Counted from the stretch's first letter, positions 319 through 63,204 are shown. The stretch: DNA of 64,000 nucleotides from a bacterium (GCA_963692865.2 OY843592.1:2624001-2688000); one strand, 5' to 3'. The notes: generated by a model from the letters alone, not told the origin. Numbers and translations: made by a program.

Positions 319-660
319 GGGGCTGTTGAAAAAAACCCCTTGTCGGGTACGTCCTTTTGCTTTTGATCGTCATTCCCCTGCCATGAAAACCAACCGCCCT
401 ACCCCCCCTTGTCGAGGCTGTTGAAAAACCCTCTCCGTCTCATCCTGAGTAGCGGCGAAGCCGCGTATCGAAGGTCAATCACGACCAATGCGGGAGCGAT
501 TGCCTCTCGCCCGGCGCGAGGCGTTCGATTCCCCTCGCCCTTCGATACGCCGCCTCCGGCGGCTACTCAGGGTGAGGGGGGAAGAATGCCGCATAAGCCA
601 GGAACGAAAGCAAAATTCCTCATCCCGAGTAGGCGCGCTTGCGCGCCGTATCGAGGGACG
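319..660. repeat. REP-like cluster with two left TIR copies (GGGGCTGTTGAAAAA at 319 and 414) and CTGAG/TCGAAGG-family palindromes
   Basis: catcctgagtagcggcgaagccgcgtatcgaagg and its inverted partner; 414-545 is nearly identical to 39451-39585. Confidence 0.8.
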
Positions 661-717
661 AATGCGCGCCCGGCGCATTTTGATGTAGGATAGGCGTATT
701 CCTTACATGGAGAGAAC

Positions 718-3243
718 GTGCACCCCCTGCATCTGCTGGCGGTCGGTTACATAGCGGGTCTGTTGACGGGCGGGGTTTCCTTCGACTTCGAGCGGGGAGA
801 CGCGGCGTCGACCCTCACCGCCGCGCTCGTGCCGGCCTTCTCGATCATCCTCGCCATGAGCCGCCGCATTCGCGGAAAGACCCAGGGGCTCCTCGCTGCA
901 ACCCTCGTGTTCATGGGATTCGCCGCCTCTTTCGCCGTGCCCGCCCTCCACCGCCATGCGACGCCTGCGCATCACCTGCTGCGACAGGTTCCCTACGAGC
1001 GCATGAACCTCACGGGCCACCTCTCCCGGCCCGTGGAGCGAAACAAAAGCGCGTCGCGCAGGCCGCGCATATACCTCGAAGTGGAGCGCGCCCTCATCCG
1101 CGGCGTCGAGGTTCCTATGACCGGCGTCGTTCGGATCACGCTGGCCTCACGCCTCGAGAAAATCCCCGAGGTGGGCGACAGGCTTCTCATCCGGCGCGTC
1201 CGCCTGAGGCCTCCCGAGCGCTTCAAGAACCCGGGCGGGTTCGACTACCGCGAATTCCTGCGGCTGAGAGGCGTCCACGCCGTCGCCTACGGCTCCGTGC
1301 GCAACGTTCATCTTTTAGAACCGATGGAGAAACGGGGCTGGCGGCGGATTTTGTTCCGCTTCCGCGAGCGCATGAGCGCCCACATGCGCGCCGTCTACCC
1401 CGAGCGCGCCGCCGGCCTCATCGAGGCGATGACCATCGGCCTGCGGGACGGCATCGACACCAAACTCAAGGACGCCTTCAGGAAGTCGGGCGCTGCGCAT
1501 CTGCTCGCCATCAGCGGGCTTCACGTGGGCTTCATCGCCGCTTTTTTCTTCTTCGGCCTGCAAGGTTTTCTCCGCAGGCTTCCGCCCTGGGCTTTCCCCC
1601 TGCGACCGTTCGTGTTCACGCCGTCGAAACTCGCATCGCTCGGCGTCATCCCCCTCGTGATTCTGTTCGCGCTGCTGAGCGGCGCGCGGATTTCCACGGT
1701 GCGCGCCACCATCATGATCGTCACCTATCTCCTCACCCGGCTCCTGGAGCGGCCCGGATCGGCGATCCACTCCGTGCTTCTCGCCGCCCTGATCATCCTG
1801 CTGGTTGAACCCGGCTTCATCTGGGACGTGGGGTTTCAACTCTCCTTCGTTGCGGTGAGCGCCATCATCCTGGCGGCGGACAGGCTCCCGCGGCCCGAAG
1901 CGCGCCTGAGAATCCGGGAGAAGGAGTGGTGGCTCGCGCGCGCGCACCAACTCGCCGTCATCCAACTGGTCGTCACCGCGTCGATCACGCCGCTCACGGC
2001 GCTCCATTTCCATCAGGCGCATCCCATCGGCCTGATCGTGAATTTTCTGCTCATTCCGCTCGCCTCGCTTCTCGTGCCCCTCGCCTTCGCGGCGAGCGCC
2101 ATCGCCGCCCTCATTCCGGCGGGCGCGGGCGCGCTCCTGCTCCCCGCCGCGTGGCTCGCCGGCGCTCTCGCGCAGTTCATGATTCTCGTGTCGACCTGGT
2201 CCGCCTCCATTCCATGGGCCACGATCATTGCGCCGAGTCCCCAGGCCTGGCTCATCGCCTCCGTCTACGCACTCATGGCCCTGGCGTTGCGATCAAGGCG
2301 CGCGCGGCGGCGGCGAATCGCCTGGGCGGGCGTGTGCTGCCTGATTTTTTTCCTCCTGCTCCCCGGCGCCTCTACACAGGCCTCAGGGCCAAAGCGGACC
2401 ACGCTGCTTCTTCCCGACGCCGGTAACGTGGACGCCTTTTTCCTGCGCCTCCCCGACGGGAAAGGGCTGGCGGTCGACGCCTCAGGCAAACGGGCGGGCG
2501 GCTTCAACGCCTGGGGAAACGTGCTCGCTCCCCTGATGCGCCGGGAGAACGAGTTGAGCTGGCGCACGATGCTCAGCCTCTCCAGATATCCCAAAGAGCA
2601 ACTCGCTGCGAACGCGTTCGCCACAGGCATACGGATCGAAAACCTGCTTCGCATAGGCGACCTCAGGACTTCCGCGCCGTATCGCTCCCGTCTCAGCAAG
2701 CGGCGCCGCTCTCCCCGCGCCATATGGCGGATGAGCGGAGGCGCAGCGCGGGTTTCCCTGCATTCGTGGAGAGGAGGCGCGATGGGTTTCGAGGTTCAAA
2801 ACCCGGGTTCGCGCTGGCTGCTCATGCTGCGCTCCAGATATCCGGCGTTCGACGCAAGGTGGTTTCGAGGCAAGAGATACGACCTCGTGCGCCTGCCCGA
2901 GAGCCTGCTCAGAAAACGGGAAGTGCTCGACTGGCTGGAGGCGCGTCCGCCCCGCGCCGTCGTGGCCGCTCCCCAGAGGGTGGAATGGATGCGGACCGGC
3001 CTTTGGCGCGAAACGAGGAGAAGGCAGAGAAGACTGGGGGTCTATCGCCCCTGGCGCGGGGGAATGCTGCGCGTTCGGGCGGGCGGCGGGGCGGCTGGCG
3101 CGCGTCTTTTAATCGAGCGATTCCGCGCGCCCGAACCCTGGCCCGGGAGCGGCGCCGCTCGGTGGGTCGCGTTTCGAAGGAGTCTCGCGCCTGGATTATC
3201 AAACCGCGGGAAGATAAATCGACGGGTCGCCTACACCAGGTGA
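718..3243 (+). CDS. comEC: ComEC/Rec2 DNA uptake channel
   Basis: NPGGFDY motif, HLLAISGLHVG competence-domain motif, GFQLSF, many TM segments, degenerate C-terminal metallo-beta-lactamase region. Confidence 0.92.
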   Translation: MHPLHLLAVGYIAGLLTGGVSFDFERGDAASTLTAALVPAFSIILAMSRRIRGKTQGLLAATLVFMGFAASFAVPALHRHATPAHHLLRQVPYERMNLTGHLSRPVERNKSASRRPRIYLEVERALIRGVEVPMTGVVRITLASRLEKIPEVGDRLLIRRVRLRPPERFKNPGGFDYREFLRLRGVHAVAYGSVRNVHLLEPMEKRGWRRILFRFRERMSAHMRAVYPERAAGLIEAMTIGLRDGIDTKLKDAFRKSGAAHLLAISGLHVGFIAAFFFFGLQGFLRRLPPWAFPLRPFVFTPSKLASLGVIPLVILFALLSGARISTVRATIMIVTYLLTRLLERPGSAIHSVLLAALIILLVEPGFIWDVGFQLSFVAVSAIILAADRLPRPEARLRIREKEWWLARAHQLAVIQLVVTASITPLTALHFHQAHPIGLIVNFLLIPLASLLVPLAFAASAIAALIPAGAGALLLPAAWLAGALAQFMILVSTWSASIPWATIIAPSPQAWLIASVYALMALALRSRRARRRRIAWAGVCCLIFFLLLPGASTQASGPKRTTLLLPDAGNVDAFFLRLPDGKGLAVDASGKRAGGFNAWGNVLAPLMRRENELSWRTMLSLSRYPKEQLAANAFATGIRIENLLRIGDLRTSAPYRSRLSKRRRSPRAIWRMSGGAARVSLHSWRGGAMGFEVQNPGSRWLLMLRSRYPAFDARWFRGKRYDLVRLPESLLRKREVLDWLEARPPRAVVAAPQRVEWMRTGLWRETRRRQRRLGVYRPWRGGMLRVRAGGGAAGARLLIERFRAPEPWPGSGAARWVAFRRSLAPGLSNRGKINRRVAYTR

Positions 3244-3251
3244 ACCGAACC

Positions 3252-3646
3252 GAGGTTGTTGAAAAAGCCCCTTCACGAAAATCCTTCATTCGCGGAGGCG
3301 GCCTTTGATCGTCATTTCGGCGCACGCCGGAATCCAGAGCCGAGGAGGAAGGCAACAGCACCGGACAGCCCCAAAAACAACAAGACAAAAACAATAAAGC
3401 CAAAACCAAATTCCCTGGATTCCGGCGTGCGCCGGAATGACGGCGGGGACAAGCCCCTGGGAGAAGAAAAGCGGGGTCATCGGATGGCCCTGCGCAGGGC
3501 GCGATAGTTCTGTAGCAAGACAAGCCTTTTGGGTTGTCCTGCCCTCCGTGGTTGTCCTTTGTCAGGACAGGCACGGAGGCCTGTCCCTACGGTGAATAAT
3601 TCAACGATCGGGATTCCCTCCCCGACGAGGGATTTTCAACAGCCCC
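3252..3646. mobile_element. MITE-like element carrying a CGTC REP doublet and a GTAG REP
   Basis: TIRs GAGGTTGTTGAAAAA / TTTTCAACAGCCCC; GAACC direct repeat at 3247-3251 and 3647-3651; REPs at 3310-3336, 3416-3442 and 3564-3590. Confidence 0.8.
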
Positions 3647-3702
3647 GAACCGGGCGGGCCGCCTGCTCCCGGTGATACAAGCCCCCGTGGAACGGCCCCG
3701 AA

Positions 3703-5406: not shown

Positions 5407-5626
5407 CTGAAACTCCTCCGGTTCCCTCGAAGATACAAAACCCGCCAAAGCTAGGCGGCATCCGCGCGCGTGTCAACTTCCACGCCCGTTTGCGCGCGGA
5501 GGGGGGATGGACTACCTTCTCGACTGTTTCATATCGGCAGACATCGTGGGGAACGAATGGATAAGTAGCCGGGGTTCGCGGGAGGCGGAGCCGACTGTTC
5601 GGGGTTGCGGAAAAAGCGCCTGACAA

Positions 5627-5914
5627 GGGTTGTTGAGAAAGTCCTGACGAACGAAGTTTGGCGCAACCGATGAAAGAGCAAGAACCACTCCCCCCTTGAG
5701 GGGGAGTCGATGAAGCCGAGCGGTTTGTGCGAAGGCTGAATCGGTGGGGGGTAAAACGTGTTTGATCGCCATTACGAATTATACCCCCCACCGAATCGCT
5801 TCCGGGCTTACGCCCTCAGCTCTTCGACTCCCCCTCAAGGGGGGAGTGAAATCTCCGCCCTCTTAGGTCGGCTCCATACGCAGAATCACGAAATCAGGGT
5901 TTTTCAACAGCCAC
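5627..5914. mobile_element. MITE-like element carrying an ACTCCCCC(T)TGAGGGGGAGT repeat doublet
   Basis: TIRs GGGTTGTTGAGAAA / TTTTTCAACAGCCAC; GACAA on both flanks (5622-5626, 5915-5919). Confidence 0.65.
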
Positions 5915-5978
5915 GACAAAGGGGGGTCGACAAGGGAGGTAGAAGCTATGCCCCCGACGAGGGATTATTGACGGCCCC

Positions 5979-6231
5979 GTAGGGACAAACCCCTCCTCGG
6001 GGTTGTCCTGCCCTCCGTGGTTGTCCTTTGCCAGGGTTTCGGACAGGCACGGAGGCCTGTCCCTGCGGTCGCCGCTCAGGGAGTTTTTCAACGGCCCTCA
6101 TCGGTGGGATTCGGCCTCCCTCATCCCGAGTAGGCGCGCTTGCGCGCCGTATCGAGGGACGGACGAACCCCTTCGATACAAACGCTCTTTTCTCAGTCGC
6201 GTTTGACCTTCGGCGGCTGCTCAGGGTGAGG
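5979..6231. repeat. REP cluster (GTAG and CTGAG families) including the empty-site version of the REP interrupted at 20454-20724
   Basis: ggacaggcacggaggcctgtcc; catcccgagtaggcgcgcttgcgcgccgtatcgaggg; 6000-6066 is similar to 3531-3592. Confidence 0.75.
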
Positions 6232-7070: not shown

Positions 7071-7072
7071 CG

Positions 7073-9871: not shown

Positions 9872-10222
9872 ATGAACGACGACACGCGGCCGATTGGGTG
9901 GATCAGGGCGGCACGCAAAACGTATGAGACGTTTCCCTTGAGCGTTCGGGATCGCTTCAACACTGCTCTGACGATTGCCGCAGAAGGCGGCAAGGCCGAC
10001 ATCGCCAAACCGCTGAAAGGACTTGGGTCCGGCGTCATTGAGATCGCGGTACGCTACCGGAGCGACGCCTACCGCGTCGTCTATGCTGTAGAGATCGCCG
10101 GAGCCTTGTGGGTGGTTCACGCCTTTCAGAAGAAGTCGAAGACGGGGATCAAGACCCCGAAGGCCGAGATCGATCTCATCCGGGCGAGATTGGGACGCCT
10201 GAAGAAGGAGTTGCGGCAATGA
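9872..10222 (+). CDS. RelE/HigB (Gp49-like) toxin
   Basis: KPLKGLGSGVIEI, AYRVVY, VHAFQKKSKTGIKTP. Confidence 0.9.
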   Translation: MNDDTRPIGWIRAARKTYETFPLSVRDRFNTALTIAAEGGKADIAKPLKGLGSGVIEIAVRYRSDAYRVVYAVEIAGALWVVHAFQKKSKTGIKTPKAEIDLIRARLGRLKKELRQ

Positions 10223-10560
10223 ATGAACACGATTTCGAACTGGTCCGGGGAAGCGGAAACGTCTTCCGGGACTTCGATGACCCTCACGCGGATTTGAAAC
10301 AGGCCAAGGCGATCCTCGCCGCCCGGATCATCGCGGTGCTCGACGAACGCAACCTCACGGTGAGAAAGGCCGCGGGCATGACCGGTTTCGCCGCGGCGGA
10401 TTTCTCGCGGATACGCAACGCGGCTCTCGGGCGTTTCACGCTGGATCGGCTGATGAAGATGCTCGCCGCCCTGGACGGGCGCATCCGGGTTACGGTCCAC
10501 CTCGACACACGGCAAGCCGGGCAAGCAGCCGTGCCGGTCCCTGGCCGACAGATGGCATAA
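10219..10560 (+). CDS. HigA-like XRE/HTH antitoxin
   Basis: GSGNVFRD...ADFSRIRNA.LGRFTLDRL; ATGA overlap with the toxin gene. Confidence 0.9.
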   Translation: MNEHDFELVRGSGNVFRDFDDPHADLKQAKAILAARIIAVLDERNLTVRKAAGMTGFAAADFSRIRNAALGRFTLDRLMKMLAALDGRIRVTVHLDTRQAGQAAVPVPGRQMA

Positions 10561-10673
10561 GCAGAGCGCCCCTTTTCAGGCCAGATGAAAAACCCTTATA
10601 AAGTCCCATAACGCATTTCATACATCCACGCGATGCGGCTACCGCGCTCGATGAGACGGAAGGAGGCTACGAC

Positions 10674-12262: not shown

Positions 12263-12900
12263 GGGGAGTTGTTGAAAAAGTTCTCCAAGGGTAGTGATGT
12301 CTCGAAGAGCGCCGCCCAATGTGGGAAGGTGGTTTTGCTCCTCGTCTTTGATCGTCATTCCGGCGAAAGCCGGAATGACGAGCCAAGCAAGACCAAGATC
12401 GAGGTGGCGCGGCAAGCCGGACGTTATTTCAAACAATATCCTCATACAAATCAAGCCACTCCGGGTTCCCCTCCTCGATCAGTTCGAGCTTCCATGCCCG
12501 CCGCCAGTTTTTGATGCTCTTGTCACGAACAATCGCGCTCTCCATCGTTTCGTGGCTCTCATACCAGACCAAGGCGTGGACGCCGTAACGCTTCGTGAAA
12601 CTATTCGCCGAACCATTCTTATGTTGCCAGACTCTACGGAGGAGGTCGGACGTAACGCCGATATAGAGCGTGCCGCGACGCTCATTGGCGAGAATGTAGA
12701 CACAAGGCTGCTTCATTTTTCCTGTTTTCTCGGTTTTTGACCGTCATTCCGGCGAAAGCCGGAATCCATTCTGACTTTTGCCCCCGCCGCGCGGGTAGCC
12801 CCTCATTCTCTTCCCGCGCAGGCATTTCCGCCGCCGATCCCCATCAGAGGCTCTCGTCTGTGGCCAGGGAAAATGGATTCCGGCTTTCACCGGAATGACG
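12263..12900. repeat. CGTC-type REPs and a left TIR flanking the GIY-YIG gene
   Basis: TIR at 12263-12280; cgtcattccggcgaaagccggaatgacg at 12353-12380; inverted REP doublet at 12742-12768 and 12874-12900. Confidence 0.85.
12429..12716 (-). CDS. Small GIY-YIG endonuclease
   Basis: VYIL...RGTLYIGVTSDL.RR..QH...LVWYE...K.W.RAWK..LIE. Confidence 0.93.
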   Translation of the reverse strand: MKQPCVYILANERRGTLYIGVTSDLLRRVWQHKNGSANSFTKRYGVHALVWYESHETMESAIVRDKSIKNWRRAWKLELIEEGNPEWLDLYEDIV

Positions 12901-15833: not shown

Positions 15834-15911
15834 GGGATCAAGCGCGCCCGAGAAGGGAGCGATTGCGCTTTTTGCGTAAGGACACAACCTGTTCTTACAA
15901 AAGGCGGTACG

Positions 15912-16218
15912 GTTTTGTTCGTCATTCCGGCGAAAGCCGGAATCCATTTGCGGATGCGGGTGAATGAACGGCGGCGTATCATTCCCCGCCGATGCGCAGG
16001 AACCCTGATGAAAGGCAAAAGGCATAAAAATGGATTCCGTCGAACCCTCCCGCCTTGGTCGGCTCCGACACAGGAATGACGGTGGTTTATCCGGAGCGGT
16101 TTAAGAAATTTCCAGGAACAAAAGATAGGCGACGAATACCGGGCGGACACGCCGCTCCGCCCCTACGGAACCCTGTTAATTGAATTGAAGACGTAGGGAC
16201 AGGCCCCTGTGCCTGTCC
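15912..16218. repeat. CGTC REP doublet with conserved spacer, plus GTAG REPs
   Basis: 15915-16038 is nearly identical to 18312-18436; GTAG units at 16141-16166 and 16193-16218. Confidence 0.85.
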
Positions 16219-16787: not shown

Positions 16788-17108
16788 ATGAACCTTGCGG
16801 TATGGCTTCACCGCCTCTCGGGCGTGATCCGGAAAAGGCGGGAACTCGGCATCGCGCCGAAAGCGAAGGGTGTGAATTAGGGGGTTTAGAGGCGACCTTG
16901 CGCCTATAAATACGAGGCATAAAAAATCACTCCTCCCTTGGGGGCTGTTGAAAAGCCCTTGGCTCTGCGATTGGGCGTGTGGATATTGTCCGACCGGGAT
17001 GGGGAGAACCCGGGATGTCGGGACGCAGGAACTGCCCCTAACCGGAGAAACTCCCGCTTGGGTCCATGGCGGATGATCGACGCCTTGTCGAACCCTGTCG
17101 CGAAGCCT

Positions 17109-18138: not shown

Positions 18139-18498
18139 GGGGCTGTTGAAAAAGTCGGAGAGAGACAATTTGTTTGCAGGGGCCGCATGATATGTCAGCC
18201 ATATATGTCTAACCTACAATGCTATCGCGTTTTGCGTAGCAGGACAGGCACGGAGGCCTGTCCCTACGGTAGGCGGTGTTCTCTTCTCGGTACCCACGGC
18301 GAATTTGGTTTTCGTTCGTCATTCCGGCGAAAGCCGGAATCCATTTGCGGGTGCGGGTGAATGAACGGCGGCGTTTCATTCCCCGCCGATGCGCAAGAAC
18401 CCTGACGAAAGGCAAAAGGCGTAAAAATGGATTCCGGCTTTCGCCGGAATGACGGCGGTGGTTAATTCCGAACGAGGAGGGGCTTTTTCAACAACCCC
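18139..18498. mobile_element. TIR-bounded REP cassette (no clear TSD)
   Basis: GGGGCTGTTGAAAAAG ... CTTTTTCAACAACCCC enclosing a GTAG REP and a CGTC doublet (18317-18343, 18428-18454). Confidence 0.65.
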
Positions 18499-20196: not shown

Positions 20197-20830
20197 GGGG
20201 CTGTTGGAAAACCCCGCCTCGCCTGGAATTGACCAGCGCCGTCATTCCGGCGAATGCCGGAATCCAGAGCCGAGGAGAATGGCGACGCTCCGGTTTTTCA
20301 TCCCCTACTCATTGGCGGGAATACGGAAGAAATCAAAATACAAAGGCAAAATCCCTGGATTCCGGCATGCGCCGGAATGACGAACAAAACCACCCCTCCT
20401 CGTAGTGACAGCCCCGAGGAGGGGCCGTCACCGCAAAACCATCAAACCCCCTTCCTCGCCCTGAGCAGCCGCCTTAGGTCAAACGCGACCGAGAAGGGGC
20501 TGTTGAATAGCCCCGTTCCGGGGTCGGGCGGACACGCAGGTCCGCCCCTGCATTTCGTTTCGCAGAGGTTGGCAGGTCAGACATATATGTCTGACATATC
20601 ATGCGACCCGTATTGTGAAGGCGACAAGCCAGGACCGCATGATATGCGGCCCCTACGGTGAGATGCCGATCTGCTCGCAAGGGGTTTTTCAACAGCCCCG
20701 AGAAAGGAGCGTTCGTATCGAAGGACGAAATTCGCGCCCGCCGCAGAGATGCGCTGTGTTTGACCCTCCCTCCCCCCGGTCGGGTCAAACCTTCGATACG
20801 TCCTTCGACAGGCTCAGGACTGCTCAGGAC
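20197..20830. repeat. Composite REP cluster
   Basis: Left TIR at 20197, CGTC doublet 20240-20266 / 20356-20382, CTGAG-family units, ccttcgacaggctcagg. Confidence 0.8.
20496..20699. mobile_element. 204-bp MITE-like element inserted into a REP
   Basis: TIRs GGGGCTGTTGAATA / TTTTCAACAGCCCC; GAGAA TSD (20491-20495, 20700-20704); the flanks rejoin to match the uninterrupted REP at 6170-6231 (reverse strand). Confidence 0.88.
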
Positions 20831-20999
20831 GAGGATTCGGGGCGCTCGTCGGGACTGGCCACCGCCGTCGTTCAAAGGCGAAAAAAGCCCTCCCGAAAGC
20901 GCGCATTTCCCCGCATTTGCGTTGGATGGATGGCGGGTATGACCCGCATTCCGGCTGGACAATCGGCTCGTCTGAAGGCGCAGGAATTTCTGGAAAATT

Positions 21000-21084
21000 G
21001 GATAAATTCGGATAAATTTGGATAAATTCACGGGGTTTTTCGATAAATTATCGAGGGGAATTGCGGGGAGTTGCGGGGTATTGC
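21000..21084. repeat. Two arrays of 10-bp tandem repeats flanking a palindrome
   Basis: GGATAAATTY x3, TCGATAA-A-TTATCGA, GGGGWDTTGC x3. Confidence 0.85.
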
Positions 21085-21223: not shown

Positions 21224-21236
21224 TAAATCATTGATA
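21224..21236 (-). promoter_or_regulatory. IHF-consensus site
   Basis: TATCAATGATTTA matches WATCAANNNNTTR. Confidence 0.45.
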
Positions 21237-39450: not shown

Positions 39451-39612
39451 GGGGTTGTTGAAAAAACCCTCTCCGCCGCATCCTGAGCAGCGGCGAAGCC
39501 GCGTATCGAAGGTCAATCGCAACCGATGCGGGAGCGATTGCCTCTCACCCCGGCGCGAGGCGCTCGATTCCCCTCGCCCCTTCGACAGGCTCAGGACAGG
39601 CCCCTTCGACAC
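39451..39612. repeat. Left TIR plus CTGAG-family REP doublet
   Basis: Near copy of 414-545. Confidence 0.8.
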
Positions 39613-41285: not shown

Positions 41286-41706
41286 CGTAGCCGGACAGGC
41301 GCAGGAGCCTGTCCGGCTACGGTGGATGTGGACTGAGGGGAGAAGCCCGACTCCGAGGCGGATCGGCTCCCTTGCGGGGGTCGCATACGGGGTTGTTGAA
41401 AAAGCCGATGCGGTGCAATCCCCCTTCTCGTCCTGCCCAGCCCGCCTCTTCGCCTCACCCTGAGTAGCGGCGAAGCCGCGTATCGAAGGGCCGAAATTCG
41501 CGCCCGCCGGAGAGATGCTCTCCCATCCTTCGATACGGCGCTTACGCGCCTACTCAGGATGAGGGTTCGGGGCCGCTTGCTCGGGATGAGGAGGTCAAGC
41601 GTTCTGCGAAGTCCGATGCCGCGCGGTGGGCCGAGTCCGTTCAGCGACCCCTACACATTCTCCTCGAACAGCGACCGCAGGGAGGGCACAGGGGCCTGTC
41701 CGCTAC
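41286..41706. repeat. REP cluster between convergent znuA1 and znuB
   Basis: gtagccggacaggcgcaggagcctgtccggctac, TIR at 41389, CTGAG doublet 41454-41563. Confidence 0.8.
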
Positions 41707-52608: not shown

Positions 52609-52942
52609 GCCGGACAGGCGAAGGAGCCTGTCCGGGGACCTTCGTGTCCGCCGCCTTTCTTTGAAGAAAATTGAGAATACTGTAGGGGCGGTTCACGAAC
52701 TGTGGAGCGACCCCGGGAGAGATCGCCCCCTATCCGTATCCTATCCGTATAAGAAGGCACTTACCTTTCCTCTCAAGGCGGTCTTGCCCAAGAGTCGTCA
52801 TTCCGGCGTATGCCGGAATCCAGAACCGACGAAGGGGGAGACACGGCGGGTTTTATTCCCTGCCCTCATGGGATAGGCATGACGGCAAAAAAAGAAAGGC
52901 GAAAAACAAATTTCCTCGATTCCGGCATACGCCGGAATGACG
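52609..52942. repeat. REP cluster (GTAG and CGTC families)
   Basis: ccggacaggcgaaggagcctgtccgg; gtaggggcggttcacgaac; CGTC doublet 52796-52822 / 52916-52942. Confidence 0.8.
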
Positions 52943-53685: not shown

Positions 53686-54021
53686 ATGACGCGAGTCGAC
53701 GACGCGCTTCTCCGGCGGATGGTCGAAACCATCGTGGACGAAGTCGATCCCGAGCAGGTGATCCTCTTCGGCTCACGCGCGCGCGGCGAGGCGGCGGCGG
53801 ACTCCGATGTGGATTTTGTGGTGGTGGAAGCCGCGCCCTTTGGCGCCGGACGGAACAGGCGCGCCGAGACGACGCGTCTTTGGCGCGCGCTGGCGGGTTT
53901 CGATGTTTCCAAAGACATTCTGCTCTTCAGCCGCGACGAAGTGGAATACTGGCGTGATTCCCTCAACCACGTGCTGGCGCGCGCCCTGCGCGAAGGCGAA
54001 GTACTCTATGAGCGACATTAA
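53686..54021 (+). CDS. Minimal nucleotidyltransferase (MNT) antitoxin
   Basis: ILFGSRARG...DSDVDFVVV; EGEVLYER. Confidence 0.9.
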   Translation: MTRVDDALLRRMVETIVDEVDPEQVILFGSRARGEAAADSDVDFVVVEAAPFGAGRNRRAETTRLWRALAGFDVSKDILLFSRDEVEYWRDSLNHVLARALREGEVLYERH

Positions 54022-54034
54022 GCAGGCTGGCTAA
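54008..54034 (+). pseudogene. Possible truncated HEPN toxin start
   Basis: Overlapping ATG (MSDIKQAG*) where the HEPN partner of an MNT normally begins. Confidence 0.35.
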
Positions 54035-54126
54035 GCCCCTCTCTGATTGATCCCTGCACCTCCTTGCGCCAGAATGCGCGCGTTCACTCTCATCCGTTCA
54101 CGCTTTCATCAGAAAAGGAATTCACC

Positions 54127-54789
54127 ATGCCGATAAACGAAGCCACCGGTCTTTCAGGCGACATGGGCGTCACCGAGGAGATGATGGCCTGCCCCCTGCC
54201 CCGCGTGCCGCTCATCGACCCGGACGACATCCCCGAACATCTGGCCGAAGAACTCGCGCCCCTCTATGAGCGCGGCGTGAAGCGCTGGGGCAAGGTGTCG
54301 CGCTTCCTGCGCCTGCTCGGCTGGGCGCCCGGCTTCGTCGAGGGCTGGCAGATCATGGACGGAAAGCTCAGGGTCCAGCACCGCGACTCCGACCCCGAAT
54401 ACCTCCACATGGCCCAGCTCGTCATCATCAAGACGGCCATCCTGACCGAGTGCAACAACTGACTCGGGCACAACGTCGAGCTCGGTCGGGCTCAGGGCAT
54501 CGAACAGGAAAAAATCAATCTGCTGGAAGGCGACGGCTGGCGCGACAGCGCGCTCTTTAACGAGAAGGAAAAGGCCGTCATCAACTGGGCGGAGGAAGTC
54601 ACGAACTTAACAGCGAAAGAGAACGACGCGGCCTTCGAGGCCATGAAGAAGCACTTCTCCACCGAGCAGCTCGTCTCCCTCACCCTCATCTGCGGGCTGT
54701 GGAACCTGACGGGCCGCGTGGCCGAGGCTTTGCACCTCGTCGTGGAACCCCCCGGCGAGCGCATCGCGTTTCAGGAGGGCGGTGAGTAG
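54127..54789 (+). CDS. AhpD/carboxymuconolactone decarboxylase-like selenoprotein (Sec encoded by TGA 54460-54462)
   Basis: ELVI-like QLVIIKTAILTECNN-U-LGH continues in frame for 108 more codons (GIEQEKI...FNEKEKAVINWAEEVT...HFSTEQLV.LT); SECIS-like hairpin. Confidence 0.88.
54478..54493 (+). promoter_or_regulatory. Putative bacterial SECIS hairpin
   Basis: GAGCTC-GGTC-GGGCTC; loop begins 21 nt after the UGA. Confidence 0.7.
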
Positions 54790-54811: not shown

Positions 54812-54966
54812 GTAGGGGCGGACCTGCGTGTCCGCCCGCTTGTAGGTATCAATCTTCATAACGATAATAGAATGATAAAACACGGCGAACGCAAAGGGCG
54901 GACACGCAGGTCCGCCCCTACAAAACCATCGAACCCCACCGCTTCGGGCACTTTTTCAACAACTCC
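54812..54966. repeat. GTAG REP doublet plus right TIR
   Basis: gtaggggcggacctgcgtgtccgccc ... gggcggacacgcaggtccgcccctac; CTTTTTCAACAACTCC. Confidence 0.82.
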
Positions 54967-55231: not shown

Positions 55232-55843
55232 TCATGGCGTGACGCCCACAAGCACCAGAGGAACGGCGGGAACCCCGCGGCCTTGCCGCAGGACGTTCAG
55301 CAAATCCCGCTCGTAGTAGGCGACGCCGGAAGACATCTCCCGCTCCAGTTCCTTCATGGGAAGTATCTCCACTCCTACGTCGATGATGTCGGAAACGTAG
55401 AAGCTCAAATGCTTTACGAACAGATCATGCGCGACGAAGGCGTACTTGCCGAACTGAACCTCCACCGCGACGCGCTCTTTTACGAAATCCGTCTGGTTGT
55501 AGGACATGATGGGTTCGTGTCCCGCTTCTTCGATGGCGCGTTTCTGCTCGCTTTCCGACAGGCCGTATATGCCACGCATGAGCTTCTCGTCCGCCGTGAG
55601 CCAGAAAGTGCTCCTGCGTTCGCTCCAGCCCCGGGCCTTGAGGCCATCCTTGAATGCGCGGTTCATATCGGCGGGCGAGAACAGCAACTTTCCGGGCATG
55701 GTCTTTTCTCTGGAGACCTTGGTCCGGCAAGCCATCGCGTCGACTTCCGCGATGACTTCCTGCACCTCATCCCATAACCGTTTGCGGTGGACAAGCAGAT
55801 ATTCCTCGCCGTTCAGATGAGAATACTTGGCTTTGATGCGCAC
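55232..55843 (-). CDS. BglII/BstYI-family type II restriction endonuclease
   Basis: NQTDFVKERVAVEVQFGKY (D...ExQ catalytic motif), DVGVEI.P. Confidence 0.85.
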   Translation of the reverse strand: MRIKAKYSHLNGEEYLLVHRKRLWDEVQEVIAEVDAMACRTKVSREKTMPGKLLFSPADMNRAFKDGLKARGWSERRSTFWLTADEKLMRGIYGLSESEQKRAIEEAGHEPIMSYNQTDFVKERVAVEVQFGKYAFVAHDLFVKHLSFYVSDIIDVGVEILPMKELEREMSSGVAYYERDLLNVLRQGRGVPAVPLVLVGVTP

Positions 55844-56757
55844 TAATGACCGCCGTTTGGTTTGGCGGGGTCATAGATGGGCTTTCCCATCGGGCGCGTT
55901 TTCAAGGTTCCCGCATACAGCTTACGCACCCGGTCGAGCGCGATGTCCGCGTATTCGGAAACGACGTCGCAGCCATAGGCCGTTCTCTCGTGCTTGAGAG
56001 CGGCGATGATGGAAGAGCCGACGCCCATGTAGGGGTCGAACACCGCATCGCCCGCATCCGTCATGGAAAGAACCAAGCGCTCCACCAACTCGACGGGGAA
56101 CTGGCAGGGGTGAATCGTTTTTTCGGGGTGATTGCTCTTCACGTTCGGAAAAATCCACACGTCGCTCGGGTTCTTTCCCTTGGGATTCCCCGATAGTTTT
56201 CCGATGTTCGGCCCCTTGAAGTGTTTCTTGCCCGGATACTTCGCAGGCACCCGTATCGGGTCGAGGTTCCAGGTGTAATCGTCGCCCTTCGTCCACCAGT
56301 TGATGGTTTCGTATCGGCCCGAGAGCCGCTTGGTGCAGTGAAGCCCGTGGCCGAAGCTCCAGACGATTCGGTTGCGGAGCTTGAGACCCTGCGCCCGAAA
56401 AACGGGATATAGAACCGCGTCGAGCGGAATGATCTCACCGTTTTCCACATAGTTGCCGACCTGCCAGCAGATGGAGCCTTTGGGGTGCAGGAGACGCACG
56501 CACTCGCGTATCACCCGCTCCTGCGCTTCGATGTAATCATCGATCGGGGTTCTCGATTCGTATTCCTTCCCCAGGTTGTAGGGGGGCGAGGTGACGATGA
56601 GCTTCATCCGCTCATCGGGAAACTCGGCCATGAAAACGAGGTTGTCCGCGCACGCGAGGACGGGTTGGCTTTTTGGTTCTTCCCCCTCCAATCGAGGGAG
56701 CATGTCCTGCATCGGCTGCCGCGCCGTGCTTTCAACATTCGAAGCGGCGTTGGTCAT
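55843..56757 (-). CDS. Beta-class N4-cytosine/N6-adenine DNA methyltransferase
   Basis: TSPPY (motif IV) precedes HPCQFP and FDPYMGVGS (motif I). Confidence 0.93.
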   Translation of the reverse strand: MTNAASNVESTARQPMQDMLPRLEGEEPKSQPVLACADNLVFMAEFPDERMKLIVTSPPYNLGKEYESRTPIDDYIEAQERVIRECVRLLHPKGSICWQVGNYVENGEIIPLDAVLYPVFRAQGLKLRNRIVWSFGHGLHCTKRLSGRYETINWWTKGDDYTWNLDPIRVPAKYPGKKHFKGPNIGKLSGNPKGKNPSDVWIFPNVKSNHPEKTIHPCQFPVELVERLVLSMTDAGDAVFDPYMGVGSSIIAALKHERTAYGCDVVSEYADIALDRVRKLYAGTLKTRPMGKPIYDPAKPNGGH

Positions 56758-56804
56758 CCGATTTCCTCACGGGCGGCTAGCAACAAACGGTTGGCAATCT
56801 CAAT

Positions 56805-57227
56805 TTATAACTTGCCTTGATTCGCTAACGCAACGAAGTTCTCCAAATCCATCAAGGTGACCAAATCCGCATGTACCAAATGACGGTTCAGGCCGCCTCC
56901 CAGATAATAATCACGCAAACTCCATCCGGCACCGCCAAGAACAAGATATGCTTTTTTCCCGGCTCCGTTTTGTATCGCTTCGGCGAGACATATTATTTCA
57001 TAAGGAACTTTTTGCTCGGCGGTGCCGGAAACCTGTTGCCACTTGAGAGAGATGAGATATTTATTGTCGTCATCGTCTTTCGCTAACACATCCAGACGAT
57101 GGCGTCTTCCATTCGGCCTTTCGCCGATGAACACCTGCGTTTCATAGTGATATCCGCCATTCGTCAGCGCAGGCAGAACCATCGCCTCCAAGACCCCACC
57201 CGTTCGGGTATCGCGCGCGGCATTCAT
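56805..57227 (-). CDS. Small PD-(D/E)XK nuclease
   Basis: G..LE, H.LD, ISLKWQQVSGTAEQKVPYE; ATGA-coupled to the Dam-family MTase. Confidence 0.78.
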   Translation of the reverse strand: MNAARDTRTGGVLEAMVLPALTNGGYHYETQVFIGERPNGRRHRLDVLAKDDDDNKYLISLKWQQVSGTAEQKVPYEIICLAEAIQNGAGKKAYLVLGGAGWSLRDYYLGGGLNRHLVHADLVTLMDLENFVALANQGKL

Positions 57228-58063
57228 GTTTCCATTCCCCTCACCGCCAGCACCTCCATCGCGGGAGAGCGATCCCCCGTGCAACTGATGCGGCGCGGGC
57301 CTTCGAGGAACGAGAGCGTGAAGCCGTTTTTCTCATAAAGCGCCACGATTCTCTCCGTCGCCTGGTTCGAGAGGACGACGGGACCTTCGTGCGCGGCGAG
57401 AAATTCCGCGAGCCGCACCTGATCCGCCCAGCCAAAATCCTCCTTGGCGTATTTGGTGAACTGGACGTCATACGGAGGGTCCGCGTAGATGAAATCACCG
57501 GGCTCGACCGGGAGCGCCTCGAAGTCTTCGCAGTGAAACTCCCAGCCTTCAAAAACCTCCCGGTAGGCCGAGAAATCCCGGGCATAGTTGATTCGCTTGT
57601 AGCGCCCGAAGGGGACGTTGAACTCGCCCTTGCTGTTGAAGCGGCAAAGCCCGTTGTAGCCCGTGCGGTTCAGGTAATAGAAAAGCTCCGCCGCCTCCTT
57701 GTTGCGCCCCCGTCCGCTCATGAGGAGTTCGTTGAACCGCTCCCTGTGAGCGTAGTAGGTCTCAGACTCGTTTCGCATGTCGGTCCGCGCGCGTGAGAAT
57801 CCCTTCTTGAGCCAGGCGTAGAAGTTCATAAGCGGGGCGTTGATGTCGTTCAGGAGCGCCCTCTCGGGGCGGAGGCCGAGCGCGACCGCCAGCCCGCCGC
57901 AGAAAGGCTCCACGAGGCGGCGCTCGCCGTGTTTTTTCCAGTACGCTTTAATGTGCGGGACGAGCCACCGCTTGCCGCCGGCCCATTTGAGCGGCGGGCC
58001 GGGTTTCTCATCGACTGCGTTGAGCTTCGCTTTGCGAACGCGCGCTTTCGTACTCGTGACCAT
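57224..58063 (-). CDS. Dam/D12-class alpha DNA adenine methyltransferase
   Basis: LKWAGGK, EPFCGG, YLNRTGYNGLCRFN..G.FNVPFG, DPPY. Confidence 0.94.
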   Translation of the reverse strand: MVTSTKARVRKAKLNAVDEKPGPPLKWAGGKRWLVPHIKAYWKKHGERRLVEPFCGGLAVALGLRPERALLNDINAPLMNFYAWLKKGFSRARTDMRNESETYYAHRERFNELLMSGRGRNKEAAELFYYLNRTGYNGLCRFNSKGEFNVPFGRYKRINYARDFSAYREVFEGWEFHCEDFEALPVEPGDFIYADPPYDVQFTKYAKEDFGWADQVRLAEFLAAHEGPVVLSNQATERIVALYEKNGFTLSFLEGPRRISCTGDRSPAMEVLAVRGMET

Positions 58064-58213
58064 TCGCTGTCCCGGGATGTGTCTTTGGGCGGATGCGGAC
58101 ACTTTATCACAAAGCGACGCCGGGGCCACTAATCCACAGGCGCAGAATAGCGATGGCGCATTTTCGCCGAGCGAAGTGATTGCGCTTTTCTTAAATTGTT
58201 ATTACGATTAGCC

Positions 58214-58465
58214 ATGCAATACGAATGGGACGAGAACAAACGGGAGGCCAATCTTGACAAGCATAATGTCGATTTCCTCACCGCCCTAGAGTTTGACTGG
58301 CAGACGGCTTTGGTCTACGAGGATGCGCGCACTGAATATGACGAACGACGTTTTTGGGCTTTGAGACAGATTCAGGAGCGGGTCCATGTTCTGGTATTCA
58401 CCCGCCGTGAATCGTTCGTCCGGATCATAAGCCTACGCAAAGCGAATCAAAGAGAAACGAGGTAA
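58214..58465 (+). CDS. BrnT toxin (possibly clipped at the C-terminus)
   Basis: YEWDENK...N..KH.VDF, RIISLRKAN.RE; TAA precedes a YAEHRA tail. Confidence 0.85.
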   Translation: MQYEWDENKREANLDKHNVDFLTALEFDWQTALVYEDARTEYDERRFWALRQIQERVHVLVFTRRESFVRIISLRKANQRETR

Positions 58466-62008: not shown

Positions 62009-62048
62009 GCGTTTTCATACTCCTGTCGATGTGAGCCGCAAAGCGGCT

Positions 62049-62852
62049 TCAAGGGGAACAATCTACAGGACCCGTCGATTCCATCGCCGTGAAGCACGCC
62101 CCCTGCGGGTCCATGATTCCGCCGATCCGCCCCACGTCGGGTATGTCCATCGGCGGGAACGTGCCCTGCCCGCCCAGGCTGACTGCCTTCTCCAGCGCGG
62201 CGTCGAAGTTTTCCACCTGAAAATACACGCCCCAGTGCGGCGGCATGCCGCCCATCTCGGGCGTGAGTTCGAGCATGCCCGCGCGCGGCTCCTCGCCGCT
62301 CATGAAAACCGTGTAGTCCCCGCCCGCGGGGTTGGGCGCCACGGTGTCCGTCCAGCCGAACAAATCAGCGTAGAAAGAACCCACGCGTTCCAGATCTTTC
62401 GTGAGCAGTTCGTTCCAATTGAGCGCGCCCGGCTCGTTCATCACGTCGGCCCCCTTGTGCGCCCTGGGCTGCCAGAGGCACAGGAACGCCTCCCCCGGGT
62501 CGCGGATCATCGCCATGCGGCCCGCGTCGAACACGTCGCAGGGCTCCTGGGCGGCCTGGCCGCCGAGTTCCACCGCTCTTTTCACGGTCTCGTCCGCGCT
62601 TTCGACCGACACGTAGCTCTGCCAGAAAGAGGGGTGGCCGCTTTCGAGCATCCCCGGAAACATCTCGAACATGGCGCAGACCTGTTTTCCGCTCTTCGAG
62701 AATATGGTGTAGACCGCGTCGTCCATCACGGGCCGATCCTCGAACGTCCAGCCGAACAGGGACGTGTAGAAATCCCTGGCGACGACCACCTCTTTCGCCA
62801 CCAGGTCGGCCCAGCAGAAACTCCCCGGCGCGTATTCATTTCCCTCAGGCAT
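62049..62852 (-). CDS. Two-domain VOC/glyoxalase protein
   Basis: PGSFCWADL, FY..LFGW twice, DPGEA and DPQGA. Confidence 0.9.
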   Translation of the reverse strand: MPEGNEYAPGSFCWADLVAKEVVVARDFYTSLFGWTFEDRPVMDDAVYTIFSKSGKQVCAMFEMFPGMLESGHPSFWQSYVSVESADETVKRAVELGGQAAQEPCDVFDAGRMAMIRDPGEAFLCLWQPRAHKGADVMNEPGALNWNELLTKDLERVGSFYADLFGWTDTVAPNPAGGDYTVFMSGEEPRAGMLELTPEMGGMPPHWGVYFQVENFDAALEKAVSLGGQGTFPPMDIPDVGRIGGIMDPQGACFTAMESTGPVDCSP

Positions 62853-62935
62853 GAATTTCATTCCTCTATTGATGACGGCAAATCATGATTGGGGTTCGGG
62901 GAAAAATCATAGCGCGAAGCGGCGGCGGCGAACAA

Positions 62936-63204
62936 GGGGTTGTTAAAAAACCCCTCCTCGCTTGAAATTGAGCACCACCGTCATTCCGGCGAAAGCCGGA
63001 ATCCAGGGACTTTGCTTTTGAATTCGTCTTTTCGCTTTATCGTTTTTCATGGTCATCCTGCGATTCGATATCCTGATCTGTTCTGGATTCCGGCTTTCGC
63101 CGGAATGACGGCAATCCGCGAATACGGGTTTGCAATGACGGTCCTCTTTCCCGGTTGGGTTTCATATGCCGAATCACGAAGGTCAGGATTCTTTCAACAG
63201 CCCC
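62936..63204. mobile_element. TIR-bounded CGTC REP doublet (no clear TSD)
   Basis: GGGGTTGTTAAAAAA ... CTTTCAACAGCCCC; REPs at 62979-63005 and 63084-63110. Confidence 0.65.

Follow-up and report, generated by a model that had tools for sequence, protein, structure and literature searches.

Intergenic repeats that are probably MITEs of an IS1182-family element, with mosaic interiors that include REP dimers

We analysed one strand of a 64,000-nucleotide stretch of bacterial DNA (the window), and conclude that its repeated elements are probably MITEs of an IS1182-family element, accompanied by decayed or solo ends of the same kind. This kind of mobile DNA is ordinary; the patchwork interior is unusual. 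To judge from their sequence, the GGGGYTGTTGAAAAA(S)CCC ends come from an IS1182-family insertion sequence, whose terminal inverted repeats they represent. The interiors are mosaics of common modules, which comprise REP dimers of the CGTC and GTAG types as well as further palindromes.

Results

The motif GGGGCTGTTGAAAAA has 18 matches in the window at two mismatches or fewer, against a mean of 0.18 expected from 100 dinucleotide-preserving shuffles, none of which reaches 18. All 18 ends lie outside the Pfam-supported ORFs (49 ORFs that account for 75% of the 64-kb window), in agreement with the original prediction of more than 15 copies of a ~15-bp end, all intergenic. Two additional copies with three mismatches (5601 and 5626, both + strand) were judged plausible; the three-mismatch matches at 21859, 32454, 32855 and 37023 were rejected, as they are inside genes and look like chance. 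Tandem ends spaced 25-27 nt apart, like the one at 5601..5615, are seen in the sampled loci too. As expected of MITEs, the window elements (Table 1) are small, have terminal inverted repeats in common and are non-coding, the ORFs that overlap them having no Pfam match.

The sample consists of the window and 115 loci among the matches listed of a genome scan for the end motif; long flanks were available for the first 80 of these loci, and the genome from which the window comes is not itself among the 115. Because the loci were picked for holding the motif, the association between REPs and shells (the regions bounded by paired ends) is inflated near the seed matches. This sample contains 325 unique ends, conserved at positions 1-19, and 92 unique end pairs, of which 84 are MITE-sized (84-462 bp) and 8 are IS-sized; REP content was scored in 85 shells among the matches listed, for the scanned REP types only.

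Table 1. Elements, solo ends and REP dimers in the window (matches are to sampled loci, designated L and a number).
Position	Strand	Feature	Contents and flanks	Match in sampled loci
319..333	+	Solo IS1182-type terminal repeat	Exact motif match; no partner within pair limits	
414..577	+	MITE left part, right end missing	Terminal repeat GAGGCTGTTGAAAAA, then long hairpin pair (CATCCTGAGTAGCGGCGAAGCCGCGTATCGAAGG type)	418-577: 84% match to L019 10001-10222 (subject positions 218-55 of 222), so that the last 54 nt with the far end are absent
3247..3651	.	Composite MITE 3252-3646 (395 bp)	Duplication GAACC at 3247-3251 and 3647-3651; CGTC REP dimer 3310-3442; GTAG REP 3565-3590 plus partner	3492-3646 aligns to right part of ~205-bp GTAG-dimer MITEs L015 10257-10459, L103 301-507, L086 85-320
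5601..5615	+	Degenerate extra end, 3 mismatches	25 nt before next end in same orientation	
5622..5919	.	MITE 5627-5914 (288 bp)	Duplication GACAA at 5622-5626 and 5915-5919; left end with 3 G in place of 4; long hairpin, two CCCCCCTTGAGGGGGAG palindromes (5690-5706, 5828-5844)	Clusters with 8 further elements; 95% identity to L115 301-553 over 171 nt
5977..6098	-	End 6084-6098 (2 mismatches)	Adjoins GTAG REP dimer (6041-6066 plus partner)	
12265..12380	+	Solo end GGAGTTGTTGAAAAA	Single CGTC REP hairpin 12353-12380, 88 nt on	
12742..12900	.	CGTC REP dimer	No shell	
15920..16084	.	CGTC REP dimer, right arm interrupted	No recognised shell; by eye, flank has likeness to a decayed junction and end	15879-16039: 85% identity to interior of L014 9729-10019
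16941..16955	+	Solo end	Subterminal part weakly like autonomous IS left end	
18139..18498	.	Composite shell (360 bp), without duplication	GTAG REP 18242-18267; CGTC REP dimer 18317-18454; CGTC unit 44 nt from right end	18311-18498: 88% identity to L014 9729-10019 (positions 105-291 of 291)
20197..20382	+	End GGGGCTGTTGGAAAA, partner end unrecognised	43-nt junction; CGTC REP dimer 20240-20382	
20491..20704	.	MITE 20496-20699 (204 bp)	Duplication GAGAA at 20491-20495 and 20700-20704; GTAG-type REPs 20526-20551 and 20632-20656	L030 1641-1922 has nearly the same flanks: cgcgac[c/t]GAGAA ... GAGAAaggagcg
39451..39585	+	MITE left part, same family as 414-577; right end missing		82% identity to L056 9066-9305 (positions 1-131 of 240)
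41389..41683	+	MITE, left end intact, right end decayed		86% identity over 240 nt to complete L030 1641-1922 (duplication GAGAA)
52796..52942	.	CGTC REP dimer	No shell	
54812..54966	-	Solo end 54952-54966	Adjoins GTAG REP dimer (54812-54837, 54896-54921)	
62936..63204	.	Composite shell (269 bp), without duplication	43-nt junction; CGTC REP dimer 62979-63110	

An autonomous IS with the same ends, for which the original prediction had offered IS1182-like elements as one candidate family, was found outside the window, on chromosomes of related MAGs and on Sinorhizobium and Bradyrhizobium plasmids. These partner elements of 1.50-1.53 kb (1504-1529 bp) have 5-bp duplications and encode an IS1182-family transposase. 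Specifically, the same ends bound L027 10001-11516, L071 10001-11510, L049 10001-11529 and L012 8498-10019, with one ORF of 479-481 aa in L027 and L071. The protein encoded by this ORF matches the Pfam families DUF772, DDE_Tnp_1 and DDE_Tnp_1_6 and scores 348.4 and 342.7 bits against NCBIfam NF033551 ('IS1182 family transposase', cutoff 270), and the next best models (IS5 and ISNCY) remain under their own cutoffs. IS1182 elements have a single ORF, a length of ~1.3-1.9 kb (the ISfinder size range) and short inverted repeats, and the partners are like them in all three respects, at ~1.5 kb. A tblastn search of the loci placed the transposase at 7 or more distinct sites, with 3 partial matches in short loci, and its relatives from cultured organisms (59-60% amino acid identity) are annotated 'IS1182 family transposase'. 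The rhizobial copies have the end sequence and 5-bp duplication seen here: the copy on Sinorhizobium medicae pSymB (CP140907.1) has ends GGGGCTGTTGAAGAA and duplication TACGT, and that on Bradyrhizobium sp. 62B p1 (CP092842.1) has ends GGGGTCGTTGAAAAA and duplication CGCGT. In one locus (L071, chromosome OZ241996) the IS and MITEs occur together.

Unlike these insertion sequences, the window holds only non-coding derivatives and no transposase; tblastn detected no transposase remnant in its 64 kb (best E 0.06). Because of this absence the transposase would have to act in trans on the window elements, and a matching enzyme is presumably resident in the window's organism. Past ~19 nt the window ends and the sampled IS ends are scarcely alike, with z of 2.5-2.7 for only 3 of 19 ends; the subterminal likeness at 16941..16955 has a z of 2.6, a score reached by 1 of 100 shuffles, and no transposase remnant lies alongside. 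The situation in which MITE families are linked to one transposase by their ends alone is a known one.

The duplications GAACC, GACAA and GAGAA that had been proposed for three elements were verified as exact 5-bp direct flanks (Table 1), so that three of the five window pairs have the fixed-length duplication expected of MITEs. The length is also consistent in the window and the 115 loci among the matches listed, where exact direct repeats of 5 bp adjoin 21 of the 92 pairs (0.09 expected); the corresponding counts for 4 bp and 6 bp are 3 and 1. With a 1-nt register shift allowed, 28/92 pairs are duplicated versus 2/92 in displaced control flanks, and one-mismatch duplications occur at 8/92 pairs versus 3 in the control; six of the eight IS-sized pairs have a 5-bp duplication. 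No exact or shifted 5-bp duplication was found at 62 of the 84 MITE-sized pairs, two of the five window pairs included, and 4/92 pairs have inverted instead of direct flanks, which the IS1182-MITE model leaves unexplained. A suggested preference for targets starting with GA was not borne out, as only 4 of 28 duplications start this way as read and 8 of 28 on either strand (our tally). The real target bias is for TTGAG or TTGTC after a run of C: CCCC is present at positions -15 to -4 from 77 of the 325 ends, compared to 4.2% of random 12-mers, and the commonest flanks are TTGAG (17), TTGTC (10), CTCAA (7) and GACAA (7).

REP hairpins are present inside duplication-flanked elements, as had been predicted, and belong to both the CGTC and GTAG classes. 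The CGTC units read CGTC ATTCCGGC GAAA GCCGGAAT CCA and agree with CGTC-1, by its written description rather than the alignments of the source: the tag is CGTC, the 8-bp stem starts with AT, the loop has 4 nt and the tail is CCA, with most units in head-to-head dimers (cited part of Di Nocera et al. 2013, PMC3733652). The window has 14 CGTC arms in 8 clusters, seven of which contain units in both orientations, and 10 units of three sequence types that classify as GTAG REPs; GTAG dimers are formed at 54812/54896 and in the alignment of the ~205-bp GTAG-dimer MITEs. The elements were described as having common ends and unrelated interiors, of which the first part stands; the second does not, as modules are common to four of the five window pairs. 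A CGTC REP dimer is common to 3252-3646, 18139-18498 and 62936-63204, the first two of these also have a GTAG REP in common (31 nt, 100% identity), and a 36-nt module (92%) is common to 18139-18498 and 20496-20699, leaving only 5627-5914 without a module in common with the other four. The description of REP families as shell cargo likewise applies in part, to the 26 of 85 shells that contain REPs and not to the 59 without any scanned type. Clusters of CGTC REPs show strong enrichment within shells, which enclose 18 of the 32.

The evidence for movement of this cargo differs between the two classes. Full-length copies of a GTAG-dimer MITE occur at four loci (L015, L085, L086 and L103; 190-236 bp), each with 2 GTAG units. 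Aligned with one another over at least 85% of either copy, they are 70-92% identical; L085 and L103 are on a single chromosome. In contrast, none of the 16 CGTC-bearing shells in the window and the loci among the matches listed has a full-length homologue, and by our cross-reading of the lists an exact duplication flanks only two of them (3252-3646 in the window and L023 10001-10332). Movement of CGTC shells as units is therefore not shown, and the proposal that a DDE transposase mobilises REP mosaics in trans retains its partner with matching ends and, for co-mobilisation, partial support.

Discussion

To account for the window elements as IS1182-family MITEs, we propose that a DDE transposase encoded elsewhere would bind two inward-facing ends, move whatever lies between them and generate a 5-bp target duplication. 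Insertion would favour a run of C with TTGAG or TTGTC after it. The palindromic repeats contain sites of this type, as do the ends of the element itself, so that elements would land in and next to one another and next to REP hairpins. Any two properly oriented ends could then act as a new unit, and this re-use would produce mosaic interiors from a small module set, comprising CGTC-type REP dimers, GTAG-type REP dimers, the long CATCCTGAG...ATCGAAGG hairpin and C6-TTGAG-G6 palindromes. We infer that the mosaics arise by nesting and re-use of outer ends.

It is conceivable, if unlikely, that the cargo never moves, the REP dimers having entered the MITEs later or the MITE ends having landed independently in REP-rich hot spots, in which case pairs without a duplication would be chance juxtapositions of ends from separate events. 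Such a history would suit the 62 of 84 MITE-sized pairs that lack a duplication, the strong insertion bias to C-run palindromes and to sites just inside other ends, the presence of the same REP types outside shells, and the nested insertion of 20496-20699 within another repeat; REPs are, moreover, known IS insertion targets (Tobes and Pareja 2006, PMC1525189, cited part). However, it does not readily explain a GTAG-dimer MITE with full-length copies at four sites that differ in their flanks (two are on the same chromosome), the perfect GAACC duplication of the chimeric 3252-3646, or an end-to-CGTC junction that is conserved at 16 different ends (of 319). REP-targeting IS, BIMEs and the Neisseria mosaic regions resemble the present case in their insertion bias to palindromic repeats and interleaved intergenic repeat families (cited parts of PMC1525189 and PMC3733652), but the IS families exemplified in the cited part of PMC1525189 exclude IS1182, and the units inserted here are mostly MITEs, some of which enclose REPs and do not merely interrupt them.

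Somewhat more doubtful is the idea that the shells are a dedicated REP vehicle, in which REP dimers, above all the CGTC type, spread mainly as passengers of IS1182-type MITEs. Inward-facing ends enclose 18 of the 32 CGTC clusters, although shells make up 1.9% of bases, and the counts in less biased subsets are 7/12 away from seed matches and 4/8 in the window; the end-to-CGTC distance is 36-44 nt in 13 of 43 cases, and the conserved junctions are of two types. In addition, CGTC REPs are described as lacking a dedicated transposase, and all CGTC-1 dimers of Halothiobacillus neapolitanus lie within 41-bp palindromes (Di Nocera et al. 2013, PMC3733652, cited part). There, as here, a head-to-head CGTC-tagged dimer is enclosed by an inverted repeat, and by our reading the arm GGGaaGCTTGAAAaACC is like GGGGCTGTTGAAAAACC of this end at 13/17 positions, which gives a lead rather than a test. 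That palindrome is, however, seen as an insertion target, with no transposase named and no duplication reported in the cited part, and its arm abuts the dimer, whereas a 36-44-nt junction intervenes here. Also against a dedicated vehicle are the 59 of 85 shells without scanned REP types, the CGTC clusters with no end nearby (7/32) or with an end on one side only (7/32), the CGTC shells, of which 0/16 recur full-length and 2/16 have an exact duplication, the linker motif that lacks a CGTC REP at 5/11 ends, the statement in the cited part of PMC3733652 that most REPs are unassociated with other repeats, and the choice of loci by motif, which inflates the association near seed matches.

The remaining proposal, that the motif is simply one more subunit of REPs or BIMEs, whose hairpin would serve structure or protein binding without DDE transposition, is highly improbable and already contradicted by the IS ends and by the duplications: a GGGG / CCC(C) stem can be drawn around a TGTTGAAAAA loop, with CCC at most 8 nt after the loop in 159/255 GGGG-arm ends, and the motif lies among REPs in mosaic intergenic regions, but the outer 15 nt have no GTAG or CGTC tag, the arms do not covary (matching complement for GGAG 1/9 vs 19/255 and for GAGG 2/7 vs 45/255 in controls), no family reached the gathering threshold in an Rfam scan, the duplication is sharply 5 bp, and the 1.5-kb elements that these ends bound carry the gene of an IS1182-family transposase. 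REPINs, which are mobilised by RAYT (HUH) transposases (Bertels and Rainey 2011, PMC3116915, cited part), are similar in the inverted REP doublets of the interiors and in GTAG-tagged hairpins like those of RAYT-associated REPs; they differ in that the outer ends here have no such tag or supported hairpin and are paired with a 5-bp duplication and a match to a DDE element. No RAYT domain was found among 79 scanned window ORFs.

The reading of the window elements as IS1182-family MITEs can be compared with two described systems. ISPse1 of Paracoccus, an IS1182-family member with 16/16 inverted repeats, has a 4-bp direct repeat (PMC3281130, cited part), compared to the 5-bp duplication here. The IS1182-related MITEs of Methanosarcina acetivorans (160-169 bp, 7-14 copies), for which ISMac2 is the putative partner, are likewise short, non-coding and have ends in common with an IS1182-family element; their listed repeat sizes are 26/4 and 25/0, and the cited table is silent on REPs (Kamoun et al. 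2013, PMC3852290). The elements described here differ from them in having a 5-bp duplication, ~19-nt ends, several subfamilies and, in some, REP-dimer interiors.

The window's elements and their repeated end

The shells of the window, i.e. pairs of inward-facing ends with an interior between them, are MITEs (non-autonomous derivatives) of an IS1182-family element. Their end was described from the sequence as a repeated motif, and it is one: GGGGCTGTTGAAAAA is present in 18 copies at up to 2 mismatches, as compared to a mean of 0.18 in dinucleotide-preserving shuffles (0 of 100 reach 18), and all 18 copies lie outside the Pfam-supported ORFs (49 ORFs, covering 75% of the window). When 3 mismatches are allowed, two extra copies (5601+ and 5626+) appear within the same repeat-rich spacers, together with four matches within genes that look like chance. 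By eye, the end can also be read as a stem of GGGG and CCCC in which some copies (12265, 414 and 6098) vary in a compensatory manner; this reading was discarded, as 487 loop-anchored sites exhibit no covariation. Rfam returned nothing at the gathering threshold for the window, no tRNA genes were found in it, and the end sequence, in four spellings, was not found in the published papers searched. The 1-kb spacer upstream of an ada-like gene also holds three tandem 11-nt units of the type GGATAAATT(C/T), beside which lies a CGATAAATTATCG palindrome.

A genome collection was scanned with GGGGYTGTTGAAAAAN{0,2}CCC, which yielded at least 115 loci, 80 of them with long flanks; the loci were seeded by the motif, and the sample is thus biased towards it. 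Most of the loci listed originate from MAGs titled Nitrospinota or Nitrospinaceae, or from other bacterial MAG chromosomes. The source genome is not in the sample, as megablast of the window against the loci gave only repeat-sized matches (70-300 bp, 80-96% identity); the shared repeats suggest that the window's organism may be related to these Nitrospinota-type MAGs. Among the loci listed, the motif occurs mainly in inward-facing pairs spaced 84-462 bp apart, and several pairs are spaced ~1.5 kb apart.

An autonomous IS1182-family partner in relatives

The ~1.5-kb pairs enclose a single ORF of 479-481 aa (10045-11490 in locus L027, 10045-11484 in L071) with the Pfam domains DUF772, DDE_Tnp_1 and DDE_Tnp_1_6, which scores 348 and 343 bits against the NCBIfam model NF033551 'IS1182 family transposase' (cutoff 270) and falls under the cutoffs of the IS5 and ISNCY models. 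Among the loci listed, tblastn matches to this transposase were found in L006, L012, L027, L039 (split in three pieces), L049, L071 and L077, with L028 overlapping L027 and repeating its match, and the short loci L087, L098 and L099 hold partial matches. Flanks of the IS copies carry exact 5-bp duplications in L071 (TTGTC), L039 (CGCGT), L077 (TATTT) and L012 (GAAGA), and duplications with a 1-nt register shift in L027 (TTGAG) and L049 (CTCAA); across the window and the loci listed, 6 of 8 IS-sized pairs have one. The nearest plasmid-borne relatives (59-60% amino acid identity) are annotated 'IS1182 family transposase' and share the same architecture. The original prediction of an autonomous insertion sequence with matching ends, for which IS1182 was among the families suggested, is thus borne out in relatives, but the window itself has none: tblastn with four transposases detected no remnant there (best E 0.06), and Pfam gives no match for the ORF at 16938-17366, which adjoins the end at 16941.

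The MITEs do not appear to have arisen from the sampled IS by simple internal deletion, as the subterminal likeness between 19 window ends and four IS copies is weak. Only the ends 5914-, 16941+ and 63204- reach z values of 2.5-2.7, and blastn-short aligns the window ends to the sampled IS over the terminal 17-20 nt only.

Two side observations concern individual IS copies. Those in L039 (an alphaproteobacterial MAG), L116 and L117 (two rhizobial plasmids) share a near-identical flank, ctggca.cgctg..(c/t)(g/a)cgt / ... cacttcatgcgcaacgt. In L039, the ORF of a further transposase-like gene reads through this flank, and the common site looks like an IS-in-IS hot spot. In addition, a low-GC (40%) Myxococcales MAG (L033) holds a 1.6-kb element whose related ends run on outward to form a longer inverted repeat. 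At E < 1e-10, tblastn with the L027 transposase gives no match in this element, which may represent a distant or different partner.

Features of the window and of the sampled loci (coordinates without a locus number are those of the window)
Feature	Position	Detail
Duplication GAACC	3247-3251 and 3647-3651	flanks read directly
Duplication GACAA	5622-5626 and 5915-5919	left end one G fewer
Duplication GAGAA	20491-20495 and 20700-20704	flanks read directly
Same-orientation end pairs	5601/5626; L010 7372/7399; L019 10208/10234; L033 11724/11750; L107 170/196	25-27 nt apart
Pairs with inverted 5-bp flanks	L035 7182-7439; L043 10001-10462; L056 5117-5361; L073 16506-16753	
IS1182-family element, Sinorhizobium medicae pSymB	L116 345-1841	ends GGGGCTGTTGAAGAA; duplication TACGT
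IS1182-family element, Bradyrhizobium sp. 62B p1	L117 341-1853	ends GGGGTCGTTGAAAAA; duplication CGCGT
Shared flank of IS copies	L039 9990-10000/11507-11520; L117 330-340/1854-1870; L116 335-344/1842-1860	
1.6-kb element, Myxococcales MAG	L033 11750-13340	ends GGGGTTGTTCAAAAAT
Single CGTC REP hairpin	12353-12380	
GIY-YIG nuclease ORF, 95 aa	12429-12716, minus strand	Pfam PF01541, E 8e-15
CGTC REP dimer	12742-12900	
Tandem 11-nt units	20995-21055	
Low-GC block	24000-36000	
Gp49-like ORF and HTH_37 partner	9872-10560	
Nucleotidyltransferase-domain ORF	53686-54021	within cluster region 53686-54462
Two DNA methylases and PD-(D/E)XK nuclease	55843-58129	
BrnT toxin domain	58196-58465	

Target-site duplication and site preference

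The three 5-bp duplications originally read from the window are present in its flanks, and the pairs at 18139-18498 and 62936-63204 have none. Of 92 unique inward-facing pairs no more than 2 kb apart (window and loci listed), 21 are immediately flanked by exact 5-bp direct repeats, for which 0.09 would be expected; exact adjacent repeats of 4 bp flank 3 pairs, and those of 6 bp flank 1. Allowing a 1-nt shift, a duplication is found at 28 of the 92 pairs as compared to 2 in control flanks displaced by 7 bp, and tolerating one mismatch adds 8 pairs as compared to 3 in a control; 62 of the 84 MITE-sized pairs in the window and the loci listed lack an exact or shifted duplication. At four of the 92 pairs, the 5-bp flanks are reverse complements of each other instead of direct repeats. 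Across all 92 pairs, the four longest outward inverted-repeat extensions are 6, 7, 9 and 11 nt; a continued inverted repeat thus takes the place of the direct duplication.

Conservation over 325 unique ends from the window and the loci listed is confined to positions 1-19. Outside the ends, positions -12 to -6 are rich in C, with CCCC at -15 to -4 in 77 of 325 ends versus 4.2% of random 12-mers, and the commonest flanking 5-mers are TTGAG (17), TTGTC (10), CTCAA (7), GACAA (7) and GAGAA (6). The proposed rule that duplications start with GA is not upheld, as by hand tally it fits 4 of 28 duplications as read and 8 of 28 on either strand, versus ~3.4 expected. The preferred site matches the centre of C6-TTGAG-G6 palindromes, which are themselves repeats in the window, and also the stretch just inside the end of another copy. 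The latter fits the same-orientation ends found 25-27 nt apart, which look as if a resident copy had received a new one ~5 nt beyond its own terminal ~20 nt.

Modular interiors enriched in CGTC REPs

The interiors were originally described as unrelated, whereas pairwise matches reveal shared modules. Single-linkage clustering sorted 85 shell interiors (window and loci listed) into 23 clusters, of which the three biggest have 35, 15 and 9 members; 4 of the 5 window elements belong to the biggest via chains of shared pieces. The 'CGTC doublets' inside some shells are head-to-head dimers of the unit CGTC ATTCCGGC GAAA GCCGGAAT CCA, and the 'GTAG REPs' comprise three GTAG-tagged palindrome types. 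As characterized in Di Nocera et al. 2013 (PMC3733652), the CGTC-1 REP is tagged by CGTC, has an 8-bp stem that begins with AT, a 4-nt loop and a CCA tail, and forms mostly head-to-head dimers; the window units fit this written description.

In a pattern search of the 85 shells (window and loci listed), 59 contain no scanned REP, 11 contain CGTC units only, 10 GTAG units only and 5 both. REP clusters in the same material were classed by whether inward-facing ends lie on both sides, on one side or on neither: the 32 CGTC clusters divide 18, 7 and 7 (4, 1 and 3 for the 8 in the window; 7, 2 and 3 for the 12 at loci away from seed matches), and GTAG types a, b and c divide 10, 14 and 13 (n=37), 4, 7 and 9 (n=20) and 2, 1 and 0 (n=3), respectively. 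Both REP classes are thus also found outside shells. A clear enrichment of the CGTC class in shells follows from the 18 of 32 CGTC clusters found there, as bases within pairs make up only 1.9% of the window and loci listed. End-to-CGTC distances are 36-44 nt in 13 of 43 cases (window and loci listed), and 16 of 319 ends have a CGTC unit at this distance, via two conserved junction sequences; of the 11 ends that carry the linker motif of one junction, 5 lack a CGTC unit.

To our knowledge, no transposase for the CGTC class has become known since the class was defined in 2013. Given that CGTC REPs lack a known enzyme, a GIY-YIG nuclease ORF that lies in the window between a CGTC REP hairpin and a dimer of this class draws attention as a conceivable CGTC-linked enzyme; it has no homologue in the at least 115 loci at E < 1e-5.

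Possible movement of REPs with the shell

The inference that REP mosaics are mobilised is supported by a GTAG-dimer MITE (190-236 bp), copies of which occur in full length at four different flanks among the loci listed (L015, L085, L086 and L103, with L085 and L103 on one chromosome); they are 70-92% identical, and the alignments cover at least 85% of either partner. REPs could also have entered a shell after its final move. None of the 16 CGTC-bearing shells has a full-length homologue in the window and the loci listed. Exact duplications in this group, cross-read by hand, flank only 3252-3646 in the window and 10001-10332 in L023. Against late entry stand the recurring GTAG-dimer MITE and the chimera at 3252-3646, in which an end and a CGTC dimer form the left part, the right 155 bp align to the right part of the GTAG-dimer MITE, and a perfect GAACC surrounds the whole. 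The element at 20496-20699 also speaks for movement: it contains GTAG-type REPs, is flanked by GAGAA and is set inside another repeat, and L030 1641-1922 has nearly identical flanks.

A model for the shells and its precedents

Most likely, an IS1182-family DDE transposase encoded elsewhere would bind any two inward-facing ends of ~19 nt and move the DNA between them, leaving a 5-bp duplication; we infer that this enzyme is present in the organism and acts in trans. Its preference for C-run/TTGAG-type sites would direct new copies into or beside palindromic repeats and other copies, and composite units would subsequently arise when inner ends decay and outer ends are used. Nesting, presumably followed by such end re-use, better explains the patchwork interiors than a dedicated REP-carrying system does. 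The core of the original inference was largely right. Most of the repeat clutter between the window's genes is accounted for by one ordinary mechanism, in which short ends are worked on by an IS1182-family transposase, and the end sequence and duplication length offer a concrete means of annotating these elements, which are abundant in uncultured Nitrospinota-like genomes.

IS1182-derived MITEs are already in print: Kamoun et al. 2013 (PMC3852290) report ISMac2-related MITEs from Methanosarcina acetivorans that are 160-169 bp long. Another member of the IS1182 family, ISPse1 of Paracoccus, is described in PMC3281130 as 1653 bp long, its inverted repeats being given as 16/16 and its repeat as 4 bp, and REPs are established insertion targets for IS elements (Tobes and Pareja 2006, PMC1525189). 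Among the papers found in literature searches, no title or abstract describes IS1182 MITEs that carry REP dimers. A shell that encloses REPs has its closest precedent, offered here as a lead, in Di Nocera et al. 2013 (PMC3733652), where every CGTC-1 dimer of Halothiobacillus neapolitanus lies within a 41-bp palindrome with the arm GGGaaGCTTGAAAaACC, no such palindrome was found without a dimer, and CGTC REPs are said to lack a dedicated transposase. This arm and the present end are alike, by eye, at 13 of 17 positions.

The one part of the system that merits follow-up is also the less ordinary one: CGTC REP dimers are enriched in shells, and their distance from the end is fixed. Because no mobilising enzyme is known for these REPs, a DDE-driven ride in MITEs is a testable route for their spread, and it could also account for the unexplained H. 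neapolitanus observation. It is conceivable, if rather doubtful, that CGTC dimers spread in this lineage largely as passengers of IS1182-family MITEs, that the mobile module consists of terminal repeat, 36-44-nt junction and CGTC dimer, and that the H. neapolitanus palindromes are the same kind of end.

Other features of the window

A low-GC block (48-53% versus ~62% elsewhere; gene GC3 0.43-0.55 versus ~0.8) contains the core genes rimP, nusA, ylxR, infB, DUF503, rbfA, truB, rpsO and pnp; both foreign origin and an assembly chimera are possible. The end motif has no copy from 20699 to 39451, and the window's repeat map lists nothing from 21068 to 39440. Defence and addiction genes (last four rows of the table) cluster near the repeat-rich spacers of the window.
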